The notes: generated by a model from the letters alone, not told the origin. Positions 3,001-49,744 are shown, counted from the stretch's first letter. The stretch: 64,000 bases of DNA from an uncultured Bacillales bacterium (GCA_949948745.1 CATLHA010000002.1:11195-75194); one strand, 5' to 3'. Made by a program: numbers and translations.

Positions 3001-4536
3001 ATTATTTCCAAAAATAATATCATATACATCCCTATAATCAATAATAAAATCCATAAGATGATGAAAATCCATTTTACGTCCAAGAAACTCATAAAGGTTT
3101 TCATACCCCAATAGGTTACCACTACCCTCTACTGGAATTTGTCTTGGTTTTAAACAGGAACTTAGATTTTTTCCTTTTAGGTATTCTAAATATTCTCTAT
3201 GTTCAGCTAAAAACTTAGGAGTAATAGATTTTTTATAAAATTTATCCTGTAATTCTAATGGTGCTTCTTCGGAAATAAATAGTGTACTATTTCTTAGTCG
3301 AAATTCACCCGTAATATTTCTGTAATCAATAGCTTTATTCATATAGTCAAAATTGCTTGGTCCATAGACTATCATTCTTCTCATAGCCTCATAGAATTCT
3401 TCCTTTGTATATCCTCTTTCTATATAATTTCCATTTTCATCATAAGTTTTCTTTGTATGAATTGATTTTTGTGGATCAGGTTCATTTCCAGAATAATGCA
3501 AATACAGCGTATTCATCATTCCTAACATCAAACAATTATTACTAGTAAAAAAGTGCCCGCATTCATTATCAAAATCAACAATATTTTTAAGTCCATAAAA
3601 AGATAGAAAGGCTATCACATTATAGTCTTTAAATCTTTTAAAAGGAATTGGAGAATTCCATATATAATCAGGTGGAAGAGTTTCTAGTTCTTTAGATATA
3701 CGATTTATATCCTTCTCATAACTCGGATAAATTTTTTTCAAATAATCCTGAATAGAAGAATATTGGAACAACAATCTATATTCTTCTTGATTTAAGATAA
3801 TAGACTGACTATTCTCTTCTATTGTTCTTGATAAAATTTGATCTGTAACTTTTTTCATACATTCTGTTACCTCAGATGGATTCTTACAATTACTTACCTC
3901 CGAAATAACTTGATATAGATTAGAATGTTTAAAAATCAATATAGCGATATCAGAAAAATTATCCATGAAATTTTTAACTTGCTCACTTGTAATATGAGAA
4001 ACATTATTTCTATCGTTCTTTAAACAATAACCTAAGTCTTTTTCTTTATATAAATCCCACTGATCAATAAAATCTTTTAGGGATGTGTTTCCACGATTAA
4101 AATTACGTGCAATATATTGATATGGAAGATTTTTTTCCTCCTCCTCACTAAATAATCGATTAGAATATACTTTTTTCATTCCATCAGGATACTTAGATGG
4201 TTCTATTTGATCTTTTATAATTTCATATAAAGAGAGATTGATATCATCTGTAGATGGATCTACCTCATATTTTAACAATTCTATAAAATGAGATGATTGT
4301 AGATATAAATCGCCAGTAAATAATGTTATATCTAAATTTTTTATCTTTTCAATCCCAAACTTTTCAACAATTTGTCTATCTGATTCAAATAAACAAGTAG
4401 TTGGAATTTTATCTATCAAGTGATATTCTAACATTTCTTTTAAAGAAAGTGTACAATTGTAAATATTAGATAATATATACTTTGGTACTTTTAACCTTTT
4501 TCCAAAAAGTTGTCCCTTTTTATATTTGTAATTCAT
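1..4536 (-). CDS. Giant multidomain protein, N-terminal >1511 aa only (C-terminus lies beyond the window edge); Pol-beta-type nucleotidyltransferase domain (GlnE/GlnD/NTP_transf_2-like) near the in-window C-terminal end; ~150-aa internal repeats
   Basis: ATG at 4534-4536 (minus) follows an AGGAGA SD. Hand translation of many 60-nt blocks (4536-4261, 1080-961, 480-1) stays open in one frame through position 1. The ORF track shows no ORF of 60 aa or more in any frame across 733-4627, as expected for an unterminated ORF. The sequence encoded at ~420-640 is LIDTGSTGRGTNKPGDGDFDFLMRL...IVDIDITF, a G[GS]-x9-11-DxD plus third-Asp NTase signature, followed by GGLGGVGIENWILQNGG. Confidence 0.6.
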   Translation of the reverse strand, partial: MNYKYKKGQLFGKRLKVPKYILSNIYNCTLSLKEMLEYHLIDKIPTTCLFESDRQIVEKFGIEKIKNLDITLFTGDLYLQSSHFIELLKYEVDPSTDDINLSLYEIIKDQIEPSKYPDGMKKVYSNRLFSEEEEKNLPYQYIARNFNRGNTSLKDFIDQWDLYKEKDLGYCLKNDRNNVSHITSEQVKNFMDNFSDIAILIFKHSNLYQVISEVSNCKNPSEVTECMKKVTDQILSRTIEENSQSIILNQEEYRLLFQYSSIQDYLKKIYPSYEKDINRISKELETLPPDYIWNSPIPFKRFKDYNVIAFLSFYGLKNIVDFDNECGHFFTSNNCLMLGMMNTLYLHYSGNEPDPQKSIHTKKTYDENGNYIERGYTKEEFYEAMRRMIVYGPSNFDYMNKAIDYRNITGEFRLRNSTLFISEEAPLELQDKFYKKSITPKFLAEHREYLEYLKGKNLSSCLKPRQIPVEGSGNLLGYENLYEFLGRKMDFHHLMDFIIDYRDVYDIIFGNNLLSTSSYEVEFKIFKDDDIDQIRKKMNALFRKIMIEKEKIYPKFVPQSLLVDCPHLFLDSNAPKELQDAFYNRTVRSSKILKNPIYRRYLKDVDLELIYKYMPVFIEDDNKRYYSINLVNAIKQVFDSDTSFDFILEYGDYLDSIFRWNQLREFRLKSDFTKEDILNEMDSNLLKGIIDGKMKYNEDAPERFKNANPTLFLDSTLPLEIRQKFYNREFTTSDFEDSTLLDLFGNTNVVCGLPGNFSWIIPLFSNCEDSKKANMSRLKVVSAYSKISDSLFQETFREYVKKFQNSIDIDKLSYISTVLSRLSSSNSSEIFTFRQELATQILNSHDPIESLNKIEDVFIKNNIPIVGKVYSCFEILHPNLEGFDFAAPMMSPVLQNSSMMGRKTIIFSDLLKASFGSNNKSINSYLKNIEIGSKLYKDVKSGQIQLNMLDESQREELTTFSKHLATLYNNTLHGKMNTEKFSLTGNEIEDISKLEKLFSPDGTLDYNLANRVVRMFCGLAGIDTLEQAKEYVRQKKDSANIRNRMSSNSEMKLEAGDFVKGIGDITYLRNILQNGSVSKEYLGSSAGSDSTPLDTDVSMIIKEEGTIQEKIEETASRKYGPIWFVLKRDDRFDITRTSTENSSEKKDMSKLEAFYTGVLGPDHYGIRTGFASSEINYILMDDYNPAVGLEICMNGFYIPVVDMKGKIVFTPDDYDKLREKMSGLTYFDEYDYKFSNNLMMGVPEMMLEEIEQSNYITRAKKKKINEVIQQSLNELGLELKTTIDGDLTEGFVELIDTGSTGRGTNKPGDGDFDFLMRLDKSLLSDPSKIENLKTTILRNLGKEATKEVTSAGDFRLKKVEIDEKTIVDIDITFAEKTDKVFYSTDVSLVDRLTNIQKNSPEKYPYIIANILLAKQVLKEAEVYKSGHSENPQGGLGGVGIENWILQNGGSFIDAAKNFVDASVGKNFSEFKKEYQIWDFGDNHLAEKRGRYPHDNFVSDNMTEVGYQKMVSV

Positions 4537-4626
4537 AAGCATCTCCTATGATTACATTATATCACATACATTTTACATTTTTCAAAAAAAGAAAAAGAAA
4601 GACCATATAAGCCTTTCAAGATCATT

Positions 4627-28174: not shown

Positions 28175-28705
28175 CTATTTTTCTTTTTTTGGTGCTAATA
28201 ACATTATCATAGTTCTACCATCCAATTTTGCTGCCTGTTCAATTATTGAAATATCTTCTAATTTTGCGGCAAACTTATCTAGTACTTCTTTTCCTAATTC
28301 AGTATGTGCCATTTGTCTACCTTTAAAACGAATAGAAAGTTTTATTTTATCTCCCTTTTCAAGATATTTAGACACATTTCTTAATTTCGTTTCAAAATCT
28401 CCAATATCGATTACTGGTGATAAACGAAATTCCTTTAATTGTGAACTAGCTGCACGCTGTTTCTTAGTTGCCTCTTTTTCTTTCTTTTGTTTTTCATAAC
28501 GATATTTGTTATAATCCATCACTTTACAAACTGGTGGATTTCCATTTGGATTCATTAAAACCAAATCTAGTCCTGCGTAGCTTGCCAGTGTCAAAGCATC
28601 TTTGATTGGCTTTACACCAACTTGTTCACCATTAGGACCAATAACTAGAACATTACTTGCTTTAATTTGTTCATTGATCAGTAGACCATTCTTATTGTTT
28701 GCTAT
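28175..28705 (-). CDS. infC: translation initiation factor IF-3, probable non-AUG (AUA/AUU) start
   Basis: IF3 N- and C-domains (…INEQIKASNVLVIGPNGEQVGV…). The only in-frame ATG (28720) sits inside the SD GGAGGTG, so the start is inferred at the ATA of YIANN. Confidence 0.8.
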   Translation of the reverse strand: MANNKNGLLINEQIKASNVLVIGPNGEQVGVKPIKDALTLASYAGLDLVLMNPNGNPPVCKVMDYNKYRYEKQKKEKEATKKQRAASSQLKEFRLSPVIDIGDFETKLRNVSKYLEKGDKIKLSIRFKGRQMAHTELGKEVLDKFAAKLEDISIIEQAAKLDGRTMIMLLAPKKEK

Positions 28706-28720
28706 ATAAAACACCTCCAT

Positions 28721-28855: not shown

Positions 28856-28884
28856 ATTATAATAAGAATATTAACAAATGTCAA
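28856..28884 (-). promoter_or_regulatory. consensus sigma-A promoter TTGACA-17-TATAAT for the infC operon
   Basis: Exact hexamers with a 17-nt spacer on the minus strand. Confidence 0.65.
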
Positions 28885-28892
28885 CAAAAATA

Positions 28893-28922
28893 TTAAAAAA
28901 AGGTAGATATCTACCTTTTTTA
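28893..28922 (-). terminator. intrinsic terminator after the 932-aa gene
   Basis: GGTAGATATCTACC hairpin followed by T7. Confidence 0.6.
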
Positions 28923-28932
28923 TGCAATGATA

Positions 28933-31731
28933 CTACTTAGACTTTGAAGAATCTTCAGTTAATTCAGAAGTTTCTGAAGTTTGTTCCATAGTCATATTTT
29001 CAGTAGCAACTTCAGCAGCAAGTTCATTAATGGCTTGATTAACAATATCTTCACTAACAATATCAGAAGCATATGCAGCAGCTTGATCTTGATCGTATTG
29101 TTCCATTGCTAAATTAATTTGATTAATGATATCCTCATCACTAAATATATTTAATTTTCCGCCTTCAACTGAAGAATCTACAATTGGAACAAAGCCCTCA
29201 GGTAAATCAAATTCATCTTCATTACCTTCTTCTTGTTTCTTCTTTTCTTCCTCTTCTTGTCTTTTTCTTTCTTCTTCTTCTTGTCTTTTTCTTTCTTCTT
29301 CTTCTCGTTTTTTTCTTTCTTCTTCTTGACGACGTTTTTCTTCCTCAAGATCTTTGTTTGTATCTTCACTATTAGAATCATTGATTACATCCTGAATAGT
29401 TGTACTACCAGTTCCATCAGTGCTAATATTTTCAATATAATCACTTATAATAGAATCACCTAAACCTGATTCATTTTTAGTTTCTCCACCAGTAATTAGT
29501 CCTAATTTTCTTGCTTCTTCCTCGGCAGTTTTATCCCCAGCATTAGCTCTATTGATTAAATTAGTGTTATATTCTGCAATACCTGCGTTTTTACCATCTG
29601 TATAACCTAATTTAGCAGAATTATTTAAAGCAGTAGCATTATCACCAGTAGCATTATAATTCATGTAACGAGATTCTTCAGCTGGAGCACTTGCATTACT
29701 ACCATATTGTTTATAATAGTTGAATGCTGATTTATATGCTTCATTATAAACTGATTGAGATTGTTGTTCAATTTTGTCTACTTCAGCTTCAGCTTTTTTC
29801 TGAGTTTCAGCATTATCTTTACCTAAAATACCTTGTTTTTGATTAGCTTCCTCTTCTGCTTTATTTAACATTTCTTCAGCTTGCGCAGCAGTAGCTCCAC
29901 GATTAATTAATTCATCCTTAGCAGCTGCTCTATTTTCCTCCATAGTACCTTGAGAGAAAGTTACAGGATTAGTAGCACCGTTTCCTTTTCCATTACCCTT
30001 AGAACCATAATTTACAGATAAACTATCCTTTATTCTCATAACTTCTTTTGCCCATTTTTCAGCAAATACTTCTGTATGAGATGGATATCTATTTAATTCT
30101 AACATTTTAGTTCTAATTAATTCTTCAATATCAGTAACAGCATAAGTTCTTTCACGAAGCTCATCTAACTTAGAAACAACTTGAGTTGTAGAAATACTAT
30201 TAAGATCTTCTTCAGTAAGAGATTCACCATTAGCAATTCTTTGACGAATCATTTCTAATTGTTGTTCACTAGATAAATCTACATCTGCATTTTGCATATC
30301 ACGAATGTATTCATTAGCACTTGTAATTTTTCCATAAATATATTCACAAGTAGCATCTGTAATACTCATAACATTACTTGATTTATTAATATAATATCCA
30401 TTAGAATTATATCCAACACGTTTTAAATAATTCTCACTATCAAAATTTTGCATTCCTGTACGGAACCAAGCATCAAATTGTGGTCCAAACAAGTCTGTTT
30501 TAACTTCGATTGGTTGTTCACTACCATTTTTATAGATTAATTCTTTTCCAGTATAGTTATAAGCTTTACAGAACTCCGTATCAGCAATATACATAGTTCT
30601 TGAAATAAATGCAGTAGCTTCATCACTAACTTTTGTATCTGAATCTGTAATATCACTAGCAAAAATATCATCATATAATGCACGTTGTGCTTCAGCAGCA
30701 GCTTTTCTATCTTTATCATTTTCTGCATTTAACATTGCATTATGACCTTCGATAAATTTACGTACAATTTCTTTATCGTGAGCTGTATCAAAGAATGCTG
30801 TTACAGCATCAATATCCTCTGTACTTAAAGCTCCATCTTTAAACCATTGTTGGAATACTTCATAAGCTTGTTGAATAATAACTGTAGAATCTTCCATAAG
30901 TGGTTTTCCTTGTTCATCAAACATTGGATTACCATCATTATCAAGCATAGGAATTTGATTAAACAATTCCCCTCCCATAATTTCAGCAATCTCTTCATCT
31001 GAATAATTATGAGAAACTAAATAAAGTAATCTAGCTTGAGGAACTGTAAGACCTAACTTTCCTTCTACACCAGCTTCACTTGTATAAGTATGTGTAGACA
31101 TACGAGTATTAAGAGCATCATATGCTGGATAGAAATTATCTTGATAGAAAGTAGCTTGTAAACTTTCAGGAGCATTTTCTACATAAAACTCCCAACTAGT
31201 TCCTTTAATCTCAGCTTTGGTAACAGTTTGTTCTTCTGTAACTTCATTTTGAACTTCCTCTTTTTCTTCCTTGTTACGAGCTTGAGAAATAAGATAGGCT
31301 CCCCCACCAATTGCAGCAGCACCAACAGCAGTACCTGCACCGATACCTACAGCCTTTAATATCTTACTTTTCCTTTCATTCTTTAAACAATCTTCTAAAT
31401 AATTCTCATATTCATCAACTACAAGAGAATAATCATCTTCATTAAAAACACCTCTAGCAATTGATTTATCTTCATATTGAGTAAAAACTGCTTTTATATT
31501 ACTCCTGTCTATGTTTTGTGCTTTCATAGACCTTTTAATCAAGTTATCCACTGCACGAGTTGCAGCCTCTCTTTCATCTTCTTCAGGAGTAATTCTAATG
31601 TAACTACCATCATTTAATTCAATAATTGTGTCTAATAAGCAGGCATCTAAATTAGAAGTATCAGTCAAAGACGAAACATGAGTAACGTCTTGACCTTTAA
31701 TTCCTCTTAAATCTCTATAAGTCATATCCAT
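28933..31731 (-). CDS. large single-pass membrane protein with coiled-coil and Glu/Lys/Arg-rich repeats (932 aa)
   Basis: A TM segment at AVGIGAGTAVGAAAIGGGAYLI follows a ~125-aa N-terminal domain. The C-terminal part contains EEEKRRQEEERKKREEEERKRQEEEERKRQEEEEKKKQEE. Confidence 0.6.
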   Translation of the reverse strand: MDMTYRDLRGIKGQDVTHVSSLTDTSNLDACLLDTIIELNDGSYIRITPEEDEREAATRAVDNLIKRSMKAQNIDRSNIKAVFTQYEDKSIARGVFNEDDYSLVVDEYENYLEDCLKNERKSKILKAVGIGAGTAVGAAAIGGGAYLISQARNKEEKEEVQNEVTEEQTVTKAEIKGTSWEFYVENAPESLQATFYQDNFYPAYDALNTRMSTHTYTSEAGVEGKLGLTVPQARLLYLVSHNYSDEEIAEIMGGELFNQIPMLDNDGNPMFDEQGKPLMEDSTVIIQQAYEVFQQWFKDGALSTEDIDAVTAFFDTAHDKEIVRKFIEGHNAMLNAENDKDRKAAAEAQRALYDDIFASDITDSDTKVSDEATAFISRTMYIADTEFCKAYNYTGKELIYKNGSEQPIEVKTDLFGPQFDAWFRTGMQNFDSENYLKRVGYNSNGYYINKSSNVMSITDATCEYIYGKITSANEYIRDMQNADVDLSSEQQLEMIRQRIANGESLTEEDLNSISTTQVVSKLDELRERTYAVTDIEELIRTKMLELNRYPSHTEVFAEKWAKEVMRIKDSLSVNYGSKGNGKGNGATNPVTFSQGTMEENRAAAKDELINRGATAAQAEEMLNKAEEEANQKQGILGKDNAETQKKAEAEVDKIEQQSQSVYNEAYKSAFNYYKQYGSNASAPAEESRYMNYNATGDNATALNNSAKLGYTDGKNAGIAEYNTNLINRANAGDKTAEEEARKLGLITGGETKNESGLGDSIISDYIENISTDGTGSTTIQDVINDSNSEDTNKDLEEEKRRQEEERKKREEEERKRQEEEERKRQEEEEKKKQEEGNEDEFDLPEGFVPIVDSSVEGGKLNIFSDEDIINQINLAMEQYDQDQAAAYASDIVSEDIVNQAINELAAEVATENMTMEQTSETSELTEDSSKSK
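29215..29340. repeat. 27-nt tandem repeats (tcttcttcttgtctttttctttcttct-like) encoding the (EEERKRQEE)n tract
   Basis: Directly visible tandem periodicity in the coding sequence. Confidence 0.7.
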
Positions 31732-31750: not shown

Positions 31751-33181
31751 TTATTTGCAATATTTACCAGTATATCCATAACCATTGTTCAATAAATTTC
31801 TATCATTATAAGTTGAACATTGTTTATATGTTTTTTGTGCTACAACAGAAGTACATGTTTTTTCACGATAGAAGTGAACATCACCATATAATTTTTGCTC
31901 TGGTTGAACTTGCACCTTAGTAGCAGTTGTTTTAATACGATTTACATAAACAGGTAAAGAACGAGTTTCAATATCTGTACAAGTAGCTGTTACTTGTAAT
32001 GGGCTTGAATAAGCAGTTCCACTACGAACCTGTTGTCTATATAATGTGGTTGGATGATTTACACAATCTCCAGTACAATTTTCCCAATCTACCCCAACTG
32101 GAATCCAACGAGATGTTGGTGTATCAGCAGGTGGATTTTGTCCTGTATAAGTTTGACCAGAATACTTCCAATCGCCACTTACTTGATAAATTGTACCATT
32201 GTTACCACCAGATACTACATAAGAATAATTTTTACATACTTTATAGTTATAAGTACCAACTTGTTCTTGTACATTTGTTTTTACATATACAGTTTGATAT
32301 TTAGCTGTAATCGTACCAACTTGAACACGTTTAATACCAAGATCTTCAACTACACGGTTAATTGTATTAATTGGAGTAATTGATTGACCTTTTGCTAACA
32401 TTTTTGTAGTCCAACTTGACCAGTTTGCACAATAAGCACTTTCTGTTTTTGAATATTCATATTTTGTATTTGGTTTTTGTGTTGGCGGTGGTGTTGGCGT
32501 TGGTGTCGGTGTTGGTGGTGGTGTTGTTGGTTTGTCTGTTGGTGGCGGTGTTGTCGGCTTGTCTGTTGGTGGCGGTGTTGTCGGCTTGCAAGAAGGACAA
32601 GGTGTGCATGTTGGACAAGGTATTGTTGTAGGTTTTGGTACATAAGTTGGAACTGTAGTTGGTCTTTGTGTTGGAACTGGAGTTTTCTTAGGTGGTGTTA
32701 CTGGTTTAACAGGTTCCTCTTCCTTCTTCTCACAAATATCAGTTGTACAATATGCATAGCATCCTAAATGTACTAAAATATAGTTTTCCTCTTCACCACA
32801 TTTTAAATTAACTTTCATTAAGTATTCAGTTTCTTGTTTTTCAATTGTTACATATGATGCAGTAACATCACACGAATCTCCATTCTTATCTACAAATGGA
32901 ACTAATAACTTCATGTCATACATTTGTTGTAATGTAAGAGTTTTCTTATCCCCTACATTTTGAGGCAATCTCTCAGATGTATAATATGTGATTGCAGCAT
33001 TCTTCATTTCTTGAATATTAGAATTGAAGATTTGACTCTTTAATGGATTTAAAGCATCCAAATAAGAATCGAAGTTTGGCTTAGGTACTAGCCAAATTAA
33101 TAATAATACAAAGATGATAATTAAAATTAATTTAAGTAAAAATTCTTTAAGTAAATTACTTTTTCTTTCTTCAGTATACAT
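31751..33181 (-). CDS. membrane-anchored protein with long Pro/Thr-rich linker and Cys-rich C-terminal domain
   Basis: N-terminal TM LLKLILIIIFVLLLIWLV; linker (KPTTPPPTD)n plus TPTPTPTPPPT; start at MYTEE after SD GGGGGAGAG. Confidence 0.6.
   Translation of the reverse strand: MYTEERKSNLLKEFLLKLILIIIFVLLLIWLVPKPNFDSYLDALNPLKSQIFNSNIQEMKNAAITYYTSERLPQNVGDKKTLTLQQMYDMKLLVPFVDKNGDSCDVTASYVTIEKQETEYLMKVNLKCGEEENYILVHLGCYAYCTTDICEKKEEEPVKPVTPPKKTPVPTQRPTTVPTYVPKPTTIPCPTCTPCPSCKPTTPPPTDKPTTPPPTDKPTTPPPTPTPTPTPPPTQKPNTKYEYSKTESAYCANWSSWTTKMLAKGQSITPINTINRVVEDLGIKRVQVGTITAKYQTVYVKTNVQEQVGTYNYKVCKNYSYVVSGGNNGTIYQVSGDWKYSGQTYTGQNPPADTPTSRWIPVGVDWENCTGDCVNHPTTLYRQQVRSGTAYSSPLQVTATCTDIETRSLPVYVNRIKTTATKVQVQPEQKLYGDVHFYREKTCTSVVAQKTYKQCSTYNDRNLLNNGYGYTGKYCK
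32470..32610. repeat. 27-nt tandem repeats encoding the PTTPPPTDK linker
   Basis: ttgtctgttggtggcggtgttgtcggc repeated 2-3 times plus degenerate GGTGTTGG units. Confidence 0.7.
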
Positions 33182-33237
33182 ATACTCTCCCCCTTTGGTT
33201 AATATGTGCCATATTATAGCACAAACCAAATTATTTG

Positions 33238-33498
33238 TCAATTATTTTTTCTAAGTGTAACGACTGTAGTACCAACATTAAAAAAATCTACATAAAAGCT
33301 TTCTACTAGCTTTTCTTTTTCTAACACTTCTCTTACCGTCTTTTTTAAAACACCCGTACCAATTCCATGAATGATAACCACTTTTTCATCACCCATCTTG
33401 TAATGATCTCGTATAAATTCTCTAACAAGTATTCTAGTAATCTCACGGTCCATTCCATGGAGATCCAAACTTGGAATATTAGATAACAAAATCATCAC
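33238..33498 (-). CDS. Smr (small MutS-related) domain protein
   Basis: LDLHGM…VVIIHGIGTGVLKKTV pattern; 86 aa. Confidence 0.7.
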   Translation of the reverse strand: MMILLSNIPSLDLHGMDREITRILVREFIRDHYKMGDEKVVIIHGIGTGVLKKTVREVLEKEKLVESFYVDFFNVGTTVVTLRKNN

Positions 33499-34387
33499 CG
33501 TATTCTAACACTTCTTTTAATTCTGGCATAGAATTTTTTCCTCCTAACTTCATAACAGATAAAGCACCTGCTATATTAGAAAATCGAAGTGCATCATATA
33601 ATTTGTAGCCATTACACAAAAAATAAGTAAATGCTCCGTGAAAGATATCACCAGCAGCTGTAGAATCTACTGGGTTGATAATACTAAGTGTTTCTACTAC
33701 TACTGATTTTCCATCAATTCTAGTAAAGGATCCTTTAGAGCCTAAAGTAATAACTACAGTATTATAGAAATCATCTACTAACTTTTGATAGGCCATCTCT
33801 AGAGTATCTAAGTTTTCAATAGATAATTGAATTTTCGTATACTCTTCCGCAAAATCTTTAGAACAAACCAAAAATTTTACATATGGACAAAGTGCAACAA
33901 TACCAGGCTTTAAATTGCCAGCATCTAATACGCTTATTGCATCCGGATACTTTTCAAGCAAATACTTTGAAACGTCAGGTTCTTCTCCATCCACTAAAAT
34001 TGCAGTAGGATTAAAATTAAAGTTCCTATTTTCAACATATGTTTTCTTATCTCTAGAAACAATAATTGTACGACTACCATTACTAAAGTTTGCCAAAATA
34101 TAACTTGTACTTGTGTGAAAGGTATCAGAAGTCTCTAAGTAATCAATATTAGTACCGACCTTTTTAAATTCTTCTTTTATTCTTTCTCCATATAAATCTT
34201 GACCTACAATACCAACAAACGAAGTATCCATCCCCCATTTTGATAAAAGATAGGCAGCATTTGCAGCAGCCCCTCCTCCACATTCAACACCAGGAGAAAT
34301 TCTCATTTTTGTATTTTCTATAGGATATTGTTCAATAGGTAATGTAATGTCATATGCGGCATGACCAATGCATATTATCTTTTGCAT
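33479..34387 (-). CDS. PfkB-family carbohydrate kinase
   Basis: GGAAANAAY and DSTAAGDIFHGAF signatures. Confidence 0.8.
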   Translation of the reverse strand: MQKIICIGHAAYDITLPIEQYPIENTKMRISPGVECGGGAAANAAYLLSKWGMDTSFVGIVGQDLYGERIKEEFKKVGTNIDYLETSDTFHTSTSYILANFSNGSRTIIVSRDKKTYVENRNFNFNPTAILVDGEEPDVSKYLLEKYPDAISVLDAGNLKPGIVALCPYVKFLVCSKDFAEEYTKIQLSIENLDTLEMAYQKLVDDFYNTVVITLGSKGSFTRIDGKSVVVETLSIINPVDSTAAGDIFHGAFTYFLCNGYKLYDALRFSNIAGALSVMKLGGKNSMPELKEVLEYGDDFVI

Positions 34388-34409
34388 ATTTTACCACCTA
34401 TACTCATTA

Positions 34410-34445
34410 TAGCAAAAAAAGAATTGTCTTGAAAGACAATTCTTT
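34410..34445 (-). terminator. intrinsic terminator after the PMT-like gene
   Basis: AAAAGAATTGTCTT-TCA-AGACAATTCTTTT plus T7, followed by an extended -10 TGCTATAAT for the kinase gene. Confidence 0.6.
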
Positions 34446-34476
34446 TAATTTTATTCATTTTTTTATCTATTGACAT

Positions 34477-36201
34477 TTAGAAAAACCAAGTTGAAAACCA
34501 ACGAAGAGTATCTAAATATGTTCTAGAAACTAGAAGTCCAGATACTGCTGGATAAAAATAAGAAAATAAGAAAATAACAACAGCAATATAAAATACCATA
34601 AAACTATTATTTTTCATCTTTTCACATATAAATTTAACGAAAGCAACAACTGCTAACATCAAAAATGGTAAAGTTGGGAAGAAATGATACATAAACATTG
34701 CTCTTCCTATAAACATATATGGTAACCAAGTACAAAGAATAAATAACACTACATAACTTTCTTCTTTATTTCTCTTCATTAAACTCATAATAAGTGCAAA
34801 AATACTAGCGATAATACCAAACCACCATATAGCTGGATTTCCAATACCTACAATAGTACCCCTCATAGTAGTACCTAAATATCCACCATAATACCAAACA
34901 GGTCTTTGCATAATTGGCCAAGTATACCATACAGAAGAAAAATCATGTCCTTCTTGAAGCCCAGAATGGTAATCAAACATCCACCCCATCTGTCTAAATA
35001 CATCACTAATGCTATGAACTTCCTCAGGATATACTCTAGGGAATAATAAATATGATGCAAAATAAATAATAGCTGGAATGAATACAAATACTAAAACACA
35101 ATATCCAATAATAGTAAGCAATTCTTTTTTATCATTCTTTGTTTGTCTCTTCTTATAGAAATATTTAAAGAACAAATCAACAAAGAATGCAATAGCAAGT
35201 GCAAGTCCTGCATATAAACCAGTCCATTTTGTAGAAATAGCACAACCGATGAATAAACCAGAAAGTCCTAGATTAATAAATTTCTTTTTTAATGGTTCCT
35301 TTTTCTCTAAAGTAATATACTTAAACATATATAAGGCACTTAGCATAATAAATAATACTAAGAATGTATCCACAGTTCCCATTCTAGATTGCGCAAAATG
35401 GAAATTATCAAACATCATAAGAATAGCCGCTAAAAATCCCCATCTACGGTCCTTAAATATTGTCTTACCTAAAGCATACATTACAGCAATCATCAAGATA
35501 CCTGCAATATTTCCCATCAAACGATAAAAGAATGGTGCCATTCCAAAAATTGCAATTGGAATTGCCTGAATTAATTTACCTAAAGGTGGATGAACCCACT
35601 CCATAACATTAATTCCATGCACATATTGATAAGCACTTCTAGCAAAATAAACTTCATCAAAATACGCACTATTTTTATAACTAATAATTGCAGGAACTAC
35701 ATCCTTCTCATCAATCATCAGTTTGGCTTTCTCATTTTCAGAGATTGCTTCTACCTTATCACCATAAGTATCATATAATTGAATTTCTCCAATATGAGTC
35801 CCAGGTTGTCGAGAAATTAACTTAATATATTTTAAATCTTGATTAATTTCAAAATCATCCCAAGCAAATGACATTGTCTGTTCAACTGTTACTGCAAAAT
35901 TATATGTTTCATTATCACTAGAATAATAAATATCATATGTACCATTAGAGTCTCCAGCAAACATACGAATTTTTGAGATTCCCTCAGCAGTATCCCCTAC
36001 TGAGAAGACAATTTCATCTCCTGTATTTTGGAACTCATAAAAAGTTTGTGGATTTTTTGTAGAACCAAGGTTAATAAATGAAAAAATTCCATACACTAAA
36101 ACCAAAACTCCTATAATAATCCAATCTGTTTTATGAAGTTCTCTCGTTGTATCACTAAATTTCTGCCAAAATTGTTTAAATTTTGACTTATCCTTTTCCA
36201 T
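34477..36201 (-). CDS. GT39 (PMT-like) dolichyl/polyprenyl-phosphate-mannose protein mannosyltransferase family membrane glycosyltransferase
   Basis: Polytopic protein with YFDEVYFARSAYQY…EWVHPPLGK (the DE/HPPLxK loop motif of the PMT family) after a ~180-aa N-terminal extracytoplasmic domain. Confidence 0.7.
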   Translation of the reverse strand: MEKDKSKFKQFWQKFSDTTRELHKTDWIIIGVLVLVYGIFSFINLGSTKNPQTFYEFQNTGDEIVFSVGDTAEGISKIRMFAGDSNGTYDIYYSSDNETYNFAVTVEQTMSFAWDDFEINQDLKYIKLISRQPGTHIGEIQLYDTYGDKVEAISENEKAKLMIDEKDVVPAIISYKNSAYFDEVYFARSAYQYVHGINVMEWVHPPLGKLIQAIPIAIFGMAPFFYRLMGNIAGILMIAVMYALGKTIFKDRRWGFLAAILMMFDNFHFAQSRMGTVDTFLVLFIMLSALYMFKYITLEKKEPLKKKFINLGLSGLFIGCAISTKWTGLYAGLALAIAFFVDLFFKYFYKKRQTKNDKKELLTIIGYCVLVFVFIPAIIYFASYLLFPRVYPEEVHSISDVFRQMGWMFDYHSGLQEGHDFSSVWYTWPIMQRPVWYYGGYLGTTMRGTIVGIGNPAIWWFGIIASIFALIMSLMKRNKEESYVVLFILCTWLPYMFIGRAMFMYHFFPTLPFLMLAVVAFVKFICEKMKNNSFMVFYIAVVIFLFSYFYPAVSGLLVSRTYLDTLRWFSTWFF

Positions 36202-36237
36202 ATTTTTAGCCTCCTATCATATATAATGATATCAAAA

Positions 36238-36270
36238 AAAAAAGCATCTTGGAAGATGCTTTCTTTATTT
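36238..36270. terminator. bidirectional hairpin terminator downstream of ppdK
   Basis: AAGCATCTTCCAAGATGCTT flanked by A/T runs. Confidence 0.6.
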
Positions 36271-36342: not shown

Positions 36343-38976
36343 TTATACTCTAGATTTAACTACAGCCTGTGCAGCAGCAAGTCTTGCTAATGGTACACGA
36401 TATGGACTACATGATACATAAGTTAGACCTATTTCATGACAGAATTCTACAGTTGATGGATCTCCTCCATGTTCACCACAAATACCAAGTTTGATATTTG
36501 GTCTTGTTGCTTTTCCCTTTTCAATTGCAATCTTCATTAATTGTCCAACACCTTCTTGATCAACTTTAGCAAATGGATCACTTTCAAAAATAGCTTTAGA
36601 ATAATAATCTTCTAAGAATTTACCAGCATCATCTCTACTAAATCCATAAGTCATTTGTGTTAAATCATTCGTTCCAAATGAGAAGAATTCAGCATCTTCA
36701 GCAATTTTATCAGCAGTTAATGCAGCACGAGGAATTTCAATCATTGTACCAACTGAATATTTTAATTCTACTCCTTGTTCTTTAATAATTGCATCTGCAG
36801 TTTCACATACAATATTCTTAACATATTTTAATTCTTTTGTATCTCCTACTAATGGTATCATAATTTCAGGTTCTACATTAAGACCATCTTTATTTACATT
36901 GATAGCAGCTTCAATAACAGCCCTTGTTTGCATTCTTGCAATTTCTGGATAAGTAACTGCTAAACGACATCCACGATGTCCCATCATTGGATTAAATTCT
37001 TTCAATGATTCTACTCTAGACTTTAATGCCTCAAATGTCATTCCTAAACTTTCAGCAAGTGGAGCGATTTCTTCATCTGTATGAGGTAAGAATTCATGTA
37101 GAGGTGGATCTAAGAAACGAATTGTAACTCCATATCCATCCATAACTCTAAATAATCCCTCAAAGTCATCTCTTTGATATGGAAGAATCTTTTCTAATGC
37201 TTCTTCTCTTGCCTCTACTGTTTCAGCAGTAATCATACGACGGAAATTGAAAATTCTTTCTTCTTCAAAGAACATGTGTTCTGTACGACAAAGACCAATT
37301 CCCTCAGCTCCAAAATCACGAGCTACTTGAGCATCTTTTGGATTATCAGCATTTGTTCTAACTTTTAATTTACGAACACTATCAGCCCATCCCATAAATG
37401 TTTCGAAATCTCCAACAATTTCAGGAGCAACTGTTTTAATTTGTTCTCCATAAACATTACCAGTAGAACCATCTAAACTCATCCAGTCACCTTCAGAAAA
37501 AGTACGTCCATCTTTTGTAGTAACTGTTTTCTTTTCTTCATCGATTCTTAATTCACCACATCCAGAAACACAGCAAGTTCCCATACCACGAGCAACTACT
37601 GCAGCATGACTTGTCATTCCTCCACGAATAGTTAAAATACCATGGGCTAAGTTCATTCCTTCAATATCCTCTGGTGAAGTTTCTAAACGAACTAATAATA
37701 AATCTTTTTCTCCTGCTTCATGTGCTTTCATAACATCTTCAGCAGTAAAATAAATTTTACCTGTAGCAGCTCCTGGAGATGCAGCTAAACCTTTTGCGAT
37801 TACTTCAGCAGCTTTTAAACTATCTTGATCAAAGTTTGGATGTAATAATTGATCTAATTGTTTTGGTTCAACTTTAAGTAATGCTTCTTCTTTGGTAAGC
37901 ATTCCTTCATTTACTAAATCAACGGCAATTTTAAGTGCAGCACTTGCAGTTCTTTTTCCATTTCTTGTTTGAAGCATGAAAAGTTTCCCATCTTCAATTG
38001 TAAATTCCATATCTTGCATATCACGATAATGATTTTCCAAAATATTACAGATTTTTACAAATTCTTCATAACATTCAGGCATTGTTTCTTTTAAGGTATC
38101 AATTGGTTGTGGTGTACGAATACCAGCAACAACATCTTCTCCTTGTGCATTCATTAAGTATTCACCAAATAATGCTTTTTCTCCAGTTGCTGGATTTCTT
38201 GTAAATGCAACACCTGTTCCAGAAGTTTCCCCACGGTTACCATAAACCATCTCTTGAACATTTACTGCAGTTCCCCAACTACCTGGAATATCATTAAGTC
38301 TACGATAAGTAATCGCACGATCATTATTCCAACTTCTAAATACAGCTTTAATAGCTTCCATCATTTGAACACGAGGGTCTTGTGGGAATTCTACTCCTGC
38401 ATGCTTTTTATATTCTTCCTTATAAATATTAACAACTTCCATCAAATCTTCCGCTGTTAATTCTGTATCATATGTAACATTCTTCTCCTCTTTGATTTTA
38501 TCAAAAAGTCTTTCAAAAGAGCTCTTAGGGAATCCCATAACAACATCTGCAAACATTTGAATGAATCTACGATAAGAATCATATACAAATCTTGGATTAT
38601 TTGTTACTTTACTAAATCCTTCAGCAACATCATCATTCATACCTAGGTTTAAAACTGTATCCATCATACCTGGCATACTAGCTCTAGCTCCACTACGAAC
38701 AGATACTAATAAAGGATTTTCTTTATCTCCTAGTTTCTTTCCTGTAATTTTCTCTAGTTCTTCTACTTTTTCTTCAATTTCTTGTACAATTTCAGAAGCA
38801 ATTTCTTTTCCATCTTCATAATATCTAGTACAAGCTTCAGTAGTTACTGTAAATCCTCTTGGTACTGGAAGTCCTATTCCTGTCATTTCTGCTAGGTTAG
38901 CACCTTTTCCACCAAGTAGATTACGCATATCTTTATTTCCTTCGCTAAATAAATAAACGTATTTCATCATCATCAT
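36343..38976 (-). CDS. ppdK: pyruvate, phosphate dikinase
   Basis: GGMTSHAAVVARGMG phosphohistidine motif and C-terminal PEP-utilising CGEHGGDP; ~875 aa. Which of the four tandem ATGs (MMMMKYVY) is the start is ambiguous. Confidence 0.9.
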   Translation of the reverse strand: MMMMKYVYLFSEGNKDMRNLLGGKGANLAEMTGIGLPVPRGFTVTTEACTRYYEDGKEIASEIVQEIEEKVEELEKITGKKLGDKENPLLVSVRSGARASMPGMMDTVLNLGMNDDVAEGFSKVTNNPRFVYDSYRRFIQMFADVVMGFPKSSFERLFDKIKEEKNVTYDTELTAEDLMEVVNIYKEEYKKHAGVEFPQDPRVQMMEAIKAVFRSWNNDRAITYRRLNDIPGSWGTAVNVQEMVYGNRGETSGTGVAFTRNPATGEKALFGEYLMNAQGEDVVAGIRTPQPIDTLKETMPECYEEFVKICNILENHYRDMQDMEFTIEDGKLFMLQTRNGKRTASAALKIAVDLVNEGMLTKEEALLKVEPKQLDQLLHPNFDQDSLKAAEVIAKGLAASPGAATGKIYFTAEDVMKAHEAGEKDLLLVRLETSPEDIEGMNLAHGILTIRGGMTSHAAVVARGMGTCCVSGCGELRIDEEKKTVTTKDGRTFSEGDWMSLDGSTGNVYGEQIKTVAPEIVGDFETFMGWADSVRKLKVRTNADNPKDAQVARDFGAEGIGLCRTEHMFFEEERIFNFRRMITAETVEAREEALEKILPYQRDDFEGLFRVMDGYGVTIRFLDPPLHEFLPHTDEEIAPLAESLGMTFEALKSRVESLKEFNPMMGHRGCRLAVTYPEIARMQTRAVIEAAINVNKDGLNVEPEIMIPLVGDTKELKYVKNIVCETADAIIKEQGVELKYSVGTMIEIPRAALTADKIAEDAEFFSFGTNDLTQMTYGFSRDDAGKFLEDYYSKAIFESDPFAKVDQEGVGQLMKIAIEKGKATRPNIKLGICGEHGGDPSTVEFCHEIGLTYVSCSPYRVPLARLAAAQAVVKSRV

Positions 38977-46579: not shown

Positions 46580-49500
46580 TTAAACAACAAGGGAACCTTT
46601 TACTACATTAGAATTGCTAGATTTTGTGGTAAGCATGGAATCTACTAAATTAGAATTATTACTTGTATAATTAATAATAAGTTTTGCTGGAGAATTCTTT
46701 GCTGTTCCAAAAAAAGCTTCTGAATATGTAGTATTTGTTGTACGTATTGTAAACGTTGTAGTTAAACGCCAACAATTGTAAAAGATTTTATCCATTCGAG
46801 TCACATTTCTTGTATCAAAACCACTTAAATCAAAATCACCTAATGATGTACAATTAAAAAACATTTCCTCCATACTTGTCACCTTTGAAGTATTAAAGTT
46901 AGTAACATTTAGATTTCCTAATCTTTGACAATCTCGAAACATTCTTGTCATATCAGTTACACTAGATGTATCAAAATTCTGAAGAATAGTAGTTATATAC
47001 CAACATGCCCGAAACATAGAGTCCATGGTTATTACTTTACTGGTATTAAAATAACGCAAATCTAAAGACTGAATTTTTCCTAATTCAAAAAACATATAAC
47101 TCATATTTGTTACATTAGAAGTATTAAAACTACTAACATTCAATTCAGGAAGATTTTTACAAGAACAAAACATATAAGCCATATTTGTTACTTTAGATGT
47201 ATTAAATTTACTTACATCAAGATTAGTTAAAGACTTACAAGCATGAAACATATAAGCCATATTTGTTACTTTGGATGTATTAAATTTACTTACATCTAGT
47301 GCCGTAATATTATTACATTCTTGAAACATATAGCCCATATTTGTTACATTTGATGTATTAAATTTACTTACATCAAGATTAGCTAAAGACTTACAAGATT
47401 GAAACATATAAGCCATATTTGTTACTTTGGATGTATTAAACTTACTTACATCTAAACTTGTTAAACTACTACAACCACGAAACATATTTTGCATTGTTGT
47501 AACTAAAGATGTATCAAAAGTATCTATATTTATATTTAATACTTCTAATTTATTACATTCTTGAAACATTCCAAGCATCGTTGTAACATTTTTTGTATTG
47601 AAATTTCTGATATCTAAATTCTCTAATTCATAGCAATTATTAAACATATTAGATGTATTAGTTACCTTTTCTGTATTAAAACTGCTTAAATTAACTGATT
47701 TTAAATAATTTGTATTACTAAACATAACCCTCATTGTTGTTACATTACTTGTATCAAAATTACTTAAATCTAAATTAACCAATCCAGTTCCTGCAAACAT
47801 CGCGGTCATGTCTGTTACTTTTGATGTATTAAAACTACTTAAATTAATTTCTTGAAGTTTAGAAGTTCCTCCAAACATCCACTGCATTGTTGTTACATTA
47901 CTTGTATCAAAACTACTAACATCTAAACTTGTCAATGCCAAATTGTCTCGAAACATATTTAACATGGTTGTTACTTTACTTGTATCAAATGTCCTTAAGT
48001 CTAAACTCTTTAAACTCTCACACCAACCAAACATAGAACTCATATCAGTAACATTAGATGTATCAAAATATTCTATTCCCTCCACACTTTCTAATCTCCT
48101 AAATTGATTAAATAAATAGGAACTATTTTTATTCGCTATTACTCTATTATCCCCTTGGATATATATTGTATAAGTAGAAGAATCTTCTACATTAGGTACA
48201 ACTCTTCCCATTACCCCAAAATTATTTTCTTCTGACAAATCAAAGCTTTCTAGAGTATTATACACTTCTTTAATTTGATCTTGAAATACTACCTTTGTTA
48301 CCGAATCTTTATACTTCCATATCTCCTCTGCTCCTGTATCCGAATTTAATGCAACTTGCATTTTAGGAACTGGCGCTACATAAATTTCTCCACTCATAGA
48401 TTTCGCCAAAGATAGTTTTCGCCACTCTGCTTTTAATACTACATCTGCTTCTGGCATAATAAAGTAATCATCATTTATTTGCTTTGCCTCTACTCCCATC
48501 ACTTTCCATTCTTGAAATCGATATCCTTCACATTCTGGAACTATTTCACTAATGGATACCTTATCAAATACAAAGTGATTTTCTGATATTGGTATATTCC
48601 TTACAGTACATCCCTCTGGTGCATTTCCTTCATAACTTACTCGATAATTATTCGATATTCTTGGTGTTTCTGTACTTGTTATATTTTCTTCTATCCCACC
48701 AATACTACTTTCTACTTTCTCTTTATTATTTGTATTATAAACACCTACTTGATTTATATAATTACTCTTTAATTCTACATCAAGTTCCATCTTTAATTTA
48801 GATCCTGATTTTAAATTATCAATTGTCCATGTTACTTTTTGTTCTTCTTGATTAAATGTAACATTTCCTTGACTGACTGTAATATCATTACTACTTTCTA
48901 ATTTAAAATTACTAGTATCTATATAATCTGTTAATACAAAATTATCATATGAAGTTGGTACAATAGATGCATCAAATAATATATTATTTAGTGTTTCTAT
49001 ATCTGCTAGATATTGATTATCTGATACTTTCTTGATTGGATCTAGAATATCCATCCCCATTTCATATTGAATTCCATTAACTATAACTTGTGGATATTCT
49101 TGTTTTAGATATTGAAAATAACTTTCCTCGTTTGGTGTATCTTCACAAGGATAACCATCTGTTAAAAATAAAACAATACAATTTCTATCATTACTTGATA
49201 TATAATTTTTTAATATATTATCTACATTGATTAAAGCTTGATAATAATTTGTTGTTCCTTTTTCACTTAGATTATTTATTAAACTTATCAAAGTAGTTTT
49301 ATCATTCGTAAAATCCGATAATATTTCTGAATCTGTATCAAATGTAATTAAGGCAGCTTTATTATTAGAATCTGATAGTAATGTATCAACAAGTCCTATA
49401 CTGTCTTGTTTTACTCTTTCTATTTTATTTCCACTCATGGAACCTGAAATATCCAGTACAAATATAATATCTCTATTTTTATCTTCTGTTTTCAATATGG

Positions 49501-49744
49501 TATCTATTTGAAAGGTAATCCTAGCTTTTCCACTACCTATCCACTCTGCGCTCTTCTCTACTTGAAAGCTTCCTGGTTCTTTTTTATTATAATTTAACTT
49601 TTCTGATGAAAAATTAATACTCTTTATTGGAGTAACTAGTGCAAAAGAACTATAAAGTAATCCTGTTATTGTTAATAAAAAACCTACAACTACAATTGAT
49701 AGTAAAACAAACTTATTTGGTACTTTCAAAATATCATTCTTCAT
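46580..49744 (-). CDS. secreted/surface protein with N-terminal vWA domain and long array of DUF285/BspA-like ~23-aa repeats
   Basis: Signal/TM segment, vWA MIDAS motif VLDISGSMSGNK, then ~25 repeats of LDxSxFNTSxVTNMxYMFxxCxxL. Confidence 0.75.
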   Translation of the reverse strand: MKNDILKVPNKFVLLSIVVVGFLLTITGLLYSSFALVTPIKSINFSSEKLNYNKKEPGSFQVEKSAEWIGSGKARITFQIDTILKTEDKNRDIIFVLDISGSMSGNKIERVKQDSIGLVDTLLSDSNNKAALITFDTDSEILSDFTNDKTTLISLINNLSEKGTTNYYQALINVDNILKNYISSNDRNCIVLFLTDGYPCEDTPNEESYFQYLKQEYPQVIVNGIQYEMGMDILDPIKKVSDNQYLADIETLNNILFDASIVPTSYDNFVLTDYIDTSNFKLESSNDITVSQGNVTFNQEEQKVTWTIDNLKSGSKLKMELDVELKSNYINQVGVYNTNNKEKVESSIGGIEENITSTETPRISNNYRVSYEGNAPEGCTVRNIPISENHFVFDKVSISEIVPECEGYRFQEWKVMGVEAKQINDDYFIMPEADVVLKAEWRKLSLAKSMSGEIYVAPVPKMQVALNSDTGAEEIWKYKDSVTKVVFQDQIKEVYNTLESFDLSEENNFGVMGRVVPNVEDSSTYTIYIQGDNRVIANKNSSYLFNQFRRLESVEGIEYFDTSNVTDMSSMFGWCESLKSLDLRTFDTSKVTTMLNMFRDNLALTSLDVSSFDTSNVTTMQWMFGGTSKLQEINLSSFNTSKVTDMTAMFAGTGLVNLDLSNFDTSNVTTMRVMFSNTNYLKSVNLSSFNTEKVTNTSNMFNNCYELENLDIRNFNTKNVTTMLGMFQECNKLEVLNINIDTFDTSLVTTMQNMFRGCSSLTSLDVSKFNTSKVTNMAYMFQSCKSLANLDVSKFNTSNVTNMGYMFQECNNITALDVSKFNTSKVTNMAYMFHACKSLTNLDVSKFNTSKVTNMAYMFCSCKNLPELNVSSFNTSNVTNMSYMFFELGKIQSLDLRYFNTSKVITMDSMFRACWYITTILQNFDTSSVTDMTRMFRDCQRLGNLNVTNFNTSKVTSMEEMFFNCTSLGDFDLSGFDTRNVTRMDKIFYNCWRLTTTFTIRTTNTTYSEAFFGTAKNSPAKLIINYTSNNSNLVDSMLTTKSSNSNVVKGSLVV
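46840..47900. repeat. intragenic 66-69-nt tandem repeats (near-identical copies) encoding the DUF285/BspA-like modules
   Basis: catatttgttactttggatgtattaaatttacttacatc and variants recur every ~69 nt (e.g. 47263, 47332, 47395). Confidence 0.75.

Follow-up and report, generated by a model that had tools for sequence, protein, structure and literature searches.

A PMT-type GT39 glycosyltransferase with a loop-1 beta-sandwich and a candidate Pro/Thr-stalk substrate in an uncultured gut Bacillales bacterium

PMT-type enzymes that O-glycosylate proteins have been studied in depth in eukaryotes and Actinobacteria; for Firmicutes, the evidence comes down to a single knockout study. Caldicellulosiruptor bescii Cbes_1864, a 556-amino-acid (aa) glycosyltransferase of family GT39 whose loop 1 contains a domain resembling a carbohydrate-binding module (aa 32-124), is encoded near celA, and its deletion removed all glycostain from secreted high-molecular-weight enzymes with alternating Thr/Pro linkers (Russell et al. 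2018, PMC6151902). We found no further characterised Firmicute GT39 in the literature searched. Here we describe a GT39 gene and its neighbours in a 64,000-nt stretch of an uncultured Bacillales bacterium (GCA_949948745.1, CATLHA010000002.1:11195-75194), hereafter the window, where the enzyme is encoded close to a membrane-anchored protein with a long Pro/Thr linker. An earlier note on this DNA had taken enzyme and linker protein for a candidate glycosylation pair and had suggested a PMT-dependent system in a low-GC Gram-positive; given the C. bescii genetics of 2018, the concept of a Firmicute GT39 glycosylating Pro/Thr linkers is not new. We read the enzyme as a Firmicute-type protein O-glycosyltransferase of the Cbes_1864 architecture with the linker protein as its most plausible local substrate, a proposal whose chances we consider evenly balanced.

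The 574-aa protein is almost certainly a PMT-type transferase that depends on a lipid-phosphate-sugar. The hidden Markov model (HMM) comparison with PF02366 that had been suggested for it was positive (PMT, 2e-24, 86.9 bits, cutoff 22.7), and PMT_4TMC (PF16192; 7e-19, 68.6 bits, cutoff 32.4) and PMT_2 (2e-14) also scored above their gathering thresholds. Among NCBIfam models, protein O-mannosyltransferase (Pmt) ranked first at 78.2 bits, with archaeal STT3 (30 bits) and ArnT (22.7 bits, cutoff 567) behind it and all three far under their equivalog cutoffs; the enzyme is related to actinobacterial Pmt, yet by the NCBI criterion is not its orthologue. The only real matches to PDB sequences were fungal PMTs, namely Chaetomium thermophilum Pmt4 (9i5k, 9e-13) and yeast Pmt2 (6p25_B, 1.5e-4). 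The protein is laid out as a cytoplasmic K/R-rich N-terminus, a first transmembrane (TM) helix, an extracytoplasmic loop 1, about 10 more TM helices and the PMT_4TMC C-terminal region.

The loop-1 signature DE…HPPLGK, already pointed out in the earlier note, is present as FDEVYF...HPPLGK (D182-E183 and H204-K209), with D182-E183 placed after TM1 and TM1 itself behind the K/R-rich N-terminus. In the alignment with C. thermophilum Pmt4, FDEVYF falls on FDEVHF and HPPLGKL on HPPLGKL. Alignments with fungal PMTs likewise pair R273-x4-D278 with R-x4-D, W428-P429 with W-P, and GR500-x2-F503-x2-H-x2-P with GR-x2-F/Y-x2-H-x2-P, where yeast Pmt2 has SRVTY. The DE, HPPLGK, R273-x4-D278, W-P and R500-x2-F503 motifs are invariant in 14 homologues of 54-74% identity. 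Mutagenesis showed D74, D176, R441 and Y444 of the Mycobacterium tuberculosis PMT to be essential (PMC12331936), and all four of these centre positions are kept here, as D182, D278, R500 and F503.

Fold comparison leads to the same family. An AlphaFold2 (AF2) model of the enzyme (predicted TM-score, pTM, 0.76) retrieved C. thermophilum Pmt4 9i5k first in Foldseek (1.4e-10, target TM-score, TMt, 0.65), followed by yeast Pmt1/2 and Pmt4 (2e-6 to 2e-5), AglB (2e-5) and ArnT (1.5e-4, query TM-score, TMq, 0.36), the last about 10^6-fold weaker than Pmt4 in E-value. Scoring as PMT-type by HMM, motif and fold, the enzyme does not fall in the ArnT class that the earlier note had named as its possible undoing; both an ArnT/GT83 and an oligosaccharyltransferase assignment were rejected on the HMM and fold scores.

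No MIR domain was matched by Pfam in this enzyme, and loop 5 of the AF2 model contains only a short beta-hairpin (residues 436-451). Instead, loop 1 contains a beta-sandwich of about 95 residues, placed after TM1 and ahead of the DE motif (AF2 strands within residues 55-144). Its Foldseek matches are the CBM32 modules 4lpl, 4a42 and 4a41 (E ~1e-2, TMt 0.53-0.63), and the same module gives near-threshold Pfam F5_F8_type_C matches in fused GT39 relatives. A search with the N-terminal 175 residues against 1.84 billion representatives (E <=0.001) returned this TM-plus-sandwich module in 377 clusters, usually at the N-terminus of ~570-aa proteins. In some proteins of 840-1300 aa it stands mid-protein, and all seven of those scanned (7/7) carry a PMT core behind it. 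Three of these seven (P0283, P0288 and P0287; ~1100-1300 aa) have a GT87-like GT-C domain ahead of the TM, F5/8C and GT39 module, which suggests initiating and elongating lipid-sugar-dependent transferases in one polypeptide.

By analogy with Cbes_1864, and from the conserved PMT acceptor-pocket residues, the enzyme likely glycosylates Ser/Thr of exported proteins. Most likely it serves many substrates as a general O-glycosyltransferase, and the linker protein would be one of them.

The linker protein belongs to an unannotated family. A TTG at 33241, opening a 496-aa open reading frame (ORF; 31751-33241), was rejected as its start, since this TTG belongs to a perfect TTGACA-17-TGnTATAAT promoter, as part of its -35 hexamer. 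The most probable start is ATG 33181, which follows GGGGGAG and yields the family-conserved N-terminus MYTEE, after which we call it the MYTEE protein. It consists of a short N-terminal tail, a TM helix (~10-31), an alpha/beta domain (45-150), the Pro/Thr linker and a beta-rich C-terminal domain (240-476). In the AF2 model (mean predicted local distance difference test score, pLDDT, 70.6; ~85 in the C-terminal domain, <50 in the linker) a helix packs on a four-strand sheet (45-140), residues 155-236 are disordered, and residues 240-476 form a confident all-beta domain. The 354 homologues are all unnamed, and searches of Pfam, NCBIfam and PHROGs returned no match for the protein. A PDB profile search was likewise without significant match, and the best Foldseek E-value against PDB was 0.065; the aerolysin-like and viral-capsid matches in that search are insignificant and were set aside. 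The earlier description of a Cys-rich ectodomain overstates the case: there are about nine Cys in the ~240-residue C-terminal domain, but only 3-4 are conserved across the family. The N-terminal domain has a pilin-like helix-on-sheet look in the model, and no prepilin-peptidase motif is present in the protein. As a separate observation, a type IV prepilin-like gene (MIRLKKGFTLIELLAVIV...) lies immediately upstream of PfkB at L122:6274-6690, in a relative without adjacent GT39.

Of the 81 residues of the linker itself (156-236 from ATG 33181), 32 are Pro and 23 are Thr (68% together), against averages of 2.8% Pro and 5.5% Thr for minus-strand ORFs of the window. No other ORF of the window exceeds 40% Pro/Thr/Ser (P/T/S) in any 30 residues. 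The tract comprises a 27-nt tandem repeat (2.9 copies, 94% match) encoding KPTTPPPTD as well as TPTPTPTPPPT, and its DNA has 48% GC compared with 33% for the whole gene. This composition and repeat are far beyond chance. A protein 97% identical from another sample (P0121) differs almost solely by 13 extra residues within the repeat, KPTTPPPT[DQ], and the linker is therefore a strain-level length polymorphism. Orthologues keep the position and composition of the tract between the two domains but neither its sequence nor its length: it is P/T/S-rich in most, with repeats such as PTPTNK, PSPSPS, TTTPT or PSNKPS, and in some distant family members there is a second Ser/Thr tract or an insertion of Ig-like repeats. 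The exported neighbour with a linker of the PMT-substrate kind, on which the earlier proposal leaned, is thus real, and its linker composition is conserved in the family. The linker is predicted to be disordered and extracytoplasmic. On these grounds the MYTEE protein is a plausible GT39 substrate, a supposition that could go either way, and it is the most plausible one locally.

We compared gene order in two sets of loci: 80 genome loci picked by GT39 similarity, and 80 metagenome loci (L081-L160) picked by similarity to the linker protein, 38 of them with enough upstream sequence. GT39 relatives belong to uncultured gut Bacilli once labelled 'Tenericutes' or 'Mollicutes', e.g. Ca. Alloscybalousia. 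On the GT39 side, Smr follows the enzyme gene in 60/80 loci, the linker gene in 57/80 and PfkB in 46/80. Even where GT39 identity has fallen to 42%, the genes still run GT39, (PfkB), Smr, linker gene, whereas PPDK and infC on either side shift away. Seen from the linker side, the gene immediately upstream is Smr in 38/38 loci, and PfkB comes before Smr in 29/38. The PPDK-PfkB gap is filled by other genes in the eight inspected loci that lack GT39, and a large variable protein (550-1300 aa) stands downstream of the linker-family gene in eight inspected loci.

Linker composition also differs with the adjacency of the enzyme gene. The maximum P/T/S fraction of the linker averages 0.69 with an adjacent GT39 and 0.45 without one (Mann-Whitney p 7e-6 for 72 clusters at 90% identity, 0.0065 for 24 clusters at 55% identity). 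A neighbour-joining tree suggests about six parsimony changes of the adjacency state, and the difference holds inside a mixed clade. Higher P/T/S richness beside GT39 is suggestive of a functional link, though confounded by phylogeny.

Several observations weigh against our reading. The score of 78.2 bits against the NCBIfam actinobacterial Pmt equivalog (NF058602) lies far below the cutoff of 800. The GT39-side loci were selected by similarity to GT39 itself, and 20/80 relatives lie in unrelated contexts, mostly labelled Clostridia. GT39 is adjacent in 18/38 linker-side loci, and in 20/38 there is none within 8 kb (it may sit elsewhere in the genome). The co-variation rests on few independent, phylogeny-confounded events; L122 and L158 have strong P/T linkers with no adjacent GT39, and the GT39-adjacent orthologues of L080 and L087 have poor ones. 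Terminators and promoters, predicted by pattern scans plus direct reading of intergenic sequence, bracket the GT39 gene with terminator-like hairpins and give the linker gene its own consensus promoter (12/12 match with extended -10). Neither a polyprenyl-phosphate-sugar synthase nor a flippase gene was found in the window. The likeness to Cbes_1864 is one of described architecture and not of alignment; Cbes_1864 has knockout genetics, while the present system is known from sequence and models. What these show is the family of the enzyme, its catalytic residues and fold, the make-up of the linker and the synteny counts; the protein acceptor, the sugar and the role of the MYTEE protein as substrate are inferred.

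The proposed pairing stands in part: enzyme and linker gene are neighbours in 57/80 loci selected on the GT39 side, but in 18/38 on the linker side, and they belong to separate predicted transcription units. With Smr next to the linker gene in 38/38 loci and GT39 in 18/38, the tight unit is that of Smr and the MYTEE protein, not that of GT39 and linker. GT39 is a lineage-specific neighbour of this unit, which usually has PfkB upstream and the large variable protein downstream; GT39 and the linker gene form neither an operon nor an obligate pair. The block of PfkB, Smr, MYTEE protein and large protein is conserved independently of GT39.

It is possible, though we think it somewhat unlikely, that the pairing is coincidental, a general GT39 lying beside an old PfkB-Smr-MYTEE-large-protein block in one lineage, with the stalk a plain spacer or an ordinarily modified tract. 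Pro/Thr linkers are common in exported bacterial proteins, glycosylated or not, and the separate transcription units, the adjacency counts, the occurrence of GT39 relatives in many unrelated contexts and the linkers of L122 and L158 all fit such a coincidence. Less easily reconciled with it are a GT39-to-linker block that outlives its flanking synteny and a linker P/T/S richness that is significantly higher beside GT39, also in the mixed clade. The C. bescii precedent, where P/T-linker enzymes lost all glycostain upon GT39 deletion, likewise favours a functional connection (PMC6151902).

Quite improbable, in our estimate, is a non-protein acceptor on the outer face of the membrane, for instance a glycolipid, a surface polysaccharide, or lipoteichoic or wall teichoic acid. 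Non-protein acceptors are used by other GT-C enzymes of bacteria (ArnT, YfhO/GtlB-type, Emb/Aft). The GT-C fold is shared, with ArnT and AglB among the significant Foldseek matches, and the relatives of the enzyme are labelled in NCBI sources merely as 'phospholipid carrier-dependent glycosyltransferase'. A loop-1 CBM-like domain could bind a glycan acceptor, the GT87-like fusion fits glycan building, and the score far under the Pmt equivalog cutoff leaves room for another chemistry. Set against this are the PMT-specific C-terminal 4-TM region, the lead of PMTs over ArnT by some six orders in Foldseek E-value and also by HMM, and the conservation of the residues for catalysis and the acceptor pocket, R-x2-F and the W-P loop among them. 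Moreover, the only characterised enzyme of the same published architecture is needed for protein glycosylation (PMC6151902).

One dedicated glycosylation operon from GT39 through PfkB, Smr and the linker gene to the 932-aa gene, with PfkB feeding the donor pathway, is highly improbable: the genes are co-directional and tightly spaced, and in 46/80 loci PfkB comes between GT39 and the linker gene, but terminator-like hairpins and internal promoters are predicted to split the string, PfkB is missing from 14/60 GT39-Smr loci and present in loci lacking GT39, and neither PfkB chemistry nor an Smr nuclease domain suits the task.

All genes that the earlier note had described are present on the minus strand (Table 1), together with the Smr gene between PfkB and the linker gene, which it had left unmentioned. 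A single operon from GT39 to the 932-aa gene was rejected on the terminator and promoter scans and the intergenic reading, by which predicted hairpins and promoters divide the string, and the linker and 932-aa genes have their own predicted promoter and terminator. PfkB, which the note had placed in the same gene string, is indeed there, but it tracks Smr and the linker gene and not GT39, and nothing ties it to glycosylation. The kinase scores 128 bits against the NCBIfam ribokinase model (equivalog cutoff 300), and its gene and Smr overlap by 20 nt. The hydroxyls that kinases of the PfkB family phosphorylate, on sugars or nucleosides, are non-anomeric; these kinases are not known to make the sugar-1-phosphates required for nucleotide-sugar or polyprenyl-phosphate-sugar synthesis. 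A role for PfkB in the pathway was rejected on account of this chemistry and of its following Smr and the linker gene; it probably acts outside glycosylation. In our reading neither PfkB nor Smr belongs to the system, and a dedicated system including PfkB is not supported.

The 932-aa protein, whose C-terminal part comprises an E/K/R coiled-coil plus an acidic tail, is poorly conserved and contains no P/T tract. Its sole Pfam match is the low-complexity MAP7, other matches being only to low-complexity coiled-coil, and it is detectable in 16/80 GT39-side loci at 20-55% identity.

Across the 160 loci, a polyprenyl-phosphate-sugar GT2 was found in L053 and L048 only. In L053 (6701-12815, a Clostridiaceae metagenome-assembled genome) the neighbours of the GT39 relative are a GtrB/DPM1-type GT2, which has C-terminal TM helices, and two further polytopic membrane proteins; together these could make up a complete lipid-linked-sugar glycosylation cluster. 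The GT87 fusion and the GtrB/DPM1-type neighbour fit a lipid-linked-sugar chemistry outside the membrane.

As we picture the proposed enzyme-substrate relation, GT39 would sit in the cytoplasmic membrane with loop 1 outside and take a hexose from a polyprenyl-phosphate-hexose donor, with Asp182 as the putative base and R273/D278 and R500/F503 presumably holding donor phosphate and acceptor. The hexose would pass to Thr/Ser hydroxyls of unfolded Pro/Thr-rich stretches in exported proteins, and the F5/8-type-C/CBM32-like domain of loop 1 may bind sugar on the growing glycoprotein. In the MYTEE protein, the 81-residue stalk links the membrane-proximal domain to the distal beta-rich domain, and glycosylation would stiffen it and shield it from proteases. 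Linker glycans of C. bescii and Clostridium thermocellum are galactose-based, and mannose is therefore not to be assumed as the sugar here.

A more far-reaching version, which we regard as unlikely and offer as speculation, is that GT39 and the MYTEE protein are a co-evolving enzyme-substrate pair, in which the stalk would be kept only with GT39 and otherwise decay to Asn/Asp-rich or Ig-domain spacers, the glycosylated stalk protein forming with the large variable partner a mucin-like, protease-resistant surface structure found only in this lineage of small-genome gut Bacilli. The locus extends GT39 with a lectin-like loop-1 domain to abundant uncultured gut Bacilli, and it points to a definite candidate substrate that is conserved and in which linker composition goes with the presence of the enzyme. 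If confirmed, the two would be a simple model pair for how bacterial GT39 enzymes choose Pro/Thr tracts, and surface glycoproteins would be part of the envelope in these gut bacteria.

Table 1. Features of the GT39 locus and its surroundings (positions counted from the first nucleotide of the window).
Feature	Position	Strand	Basis or remark
GT39, PMT-type GT-C glycosyltransferase, 574 aa	34477..36201	minus	Pfam PMT, PMT_4TMC and PMT_2 above cutoff; PDB and Foldseek matches to fungal PMTs
Loop-1 beta-sandwich, F5/8-type-C / CBM32-like, residues ~50-145	35767..36054	minus	AF2 strands, Foldseek, Pfam in fused relatives
D182-E183 codons, loop-1 'DE' catalytic motif (FDEVYF)	35653..35658	minus	Alignment, homologue invariance
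Terminator-like hairpin, PPDK/GT39 gap	36237..36266	minus	13-bp stem, then T-run
Terminator-like hairpin, GT39/PfkB gap	34417..34446	minus	Followed by TATAAT box and GGTGG ribosome-binding site for PfkB
PfkB-family (ribokinase-like) sugar kinase, 302 aa	33479..34387	minus	Pfam PfkB 1e-40
Stand-alone Smr-domain protein, 86 aa	33238..33498	minus	Pfam Smr 5e-17
Consensus sigma-70 promoter, linker-protein/932-aa gene pair	33213..33241	minus	TTGACA, 17 nt, TG-TATAAT; 12/12
'MYTEE' type II membrane protein (linker protein), 476 aa	31751..33181	minus	Unannotated family
Pro/Thr linker, 81 aa, candidate O-glycosylation tract	32474..32716	minus	Composition and tandem repeat
932-aa single-pass membrane protein	28933..31731	minus	ORF; 19 nt downstream of linker gene
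Terminator-like hairpin ending the linker/932-aa transcription unit	28896..28921	minus	Pattern scan
Consensus infC promoter	28856-28884	minus	Pattern scan; 12/12 sigma-70 match

The window has a GC content of about 29% and nearly all of its genes on the minus strand, with the five genes GT39, PfkB, Smr, linker protein and 932-aa protein lying between PPDK (36343-38976) and infC (28175-28720), all minus. Elsewhere in the window, ribosomal proteins S2 and L20 (26416-27321 and 27408-27947, minus) have C-terminal extensions, each a Lys/Glu-rich spacer followed by a near-identical ~34-aa tail that scores above the Pfam Rho_N threshold (37.9 and 45.6 bits); the same SAP/Rho_N-like tail on two ribosomal proteins is unusual. 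A 1054-aa protein (46580-49744, minus) that combines a VWA domain with five DUF285 ('Mycoplasma') repeats and an ORF of >1514 aa that runs off the window start with no Pfam match (1-4542, minus) are probably large surface proteins.

Among known systems, ArnT (GT83) is likewise of GT-C fold, takes its sugar from a polyprenyl-phosphate carrier and has its active site on the extracytoplasmic side, but it has no PMT_4TMC region and its acceptor is lipid A, which Bacillota do not have. The eukaryotic PMT1, PMT2 and PMT4 (6p25, 9i5k) are the best structural and PDB-sequence matches, with PMT_4TMC common to both sides and FDEV[HY]F, HPPLGKL, R-x4-D, WP and GR-x2-F-x2-H-x2-P in alignment; they differ in having a luminal MIR beta-trefoil in loop 5 where the present enzyme has its loop-1 beta-sandwich, and the enzyme is ~200 residues shorter, with 13-21% identity over the aligned model. 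The actinobacterial Pmt (M. tuberculosis Rv1002c, Streptomyces coelicolor Pmt), which uses polyprenyl-phosphate-mannose on Pro/Thr/Ala-rich regions of Sec-exported proteins, has the same GT39 fold, loop-1 DE, second-loop Asp and loop-5 R-x2-Y/F and, like other bacterial PMTs and the enzyme described here, no MIR domain. It differs in being, as far as published, without a loop-1 F5/8-type-C domain; moreover, no counterpart of its donor synthase Ppm1 was identified here, and the sugar may differ from mannose. Caldicellulosiruptor is absent among the best 80 GT39-similar genome loci. Cbes_1864 is alike in being a Firmicute GT39 of similar length (556 vs 574 aa), in its succession of N-terminal TM helix, loop-1 CBM-like sandwich (aa 32-124 vs ~50-145) and GT-C core, and in having its gene near those of proteins whose linkers alternate Pro and Thr. 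The substrates in C. bescii, a thermophile, are multidomain cellulases that are secreted, whereas the candidate here is a membrane-anchored protein in a small-genome gut bacterium. The system is of a known kind, to which the present locus adds a candidate substrate family, a co-variation signal, and the loop-1 module with its GT87 fusions.

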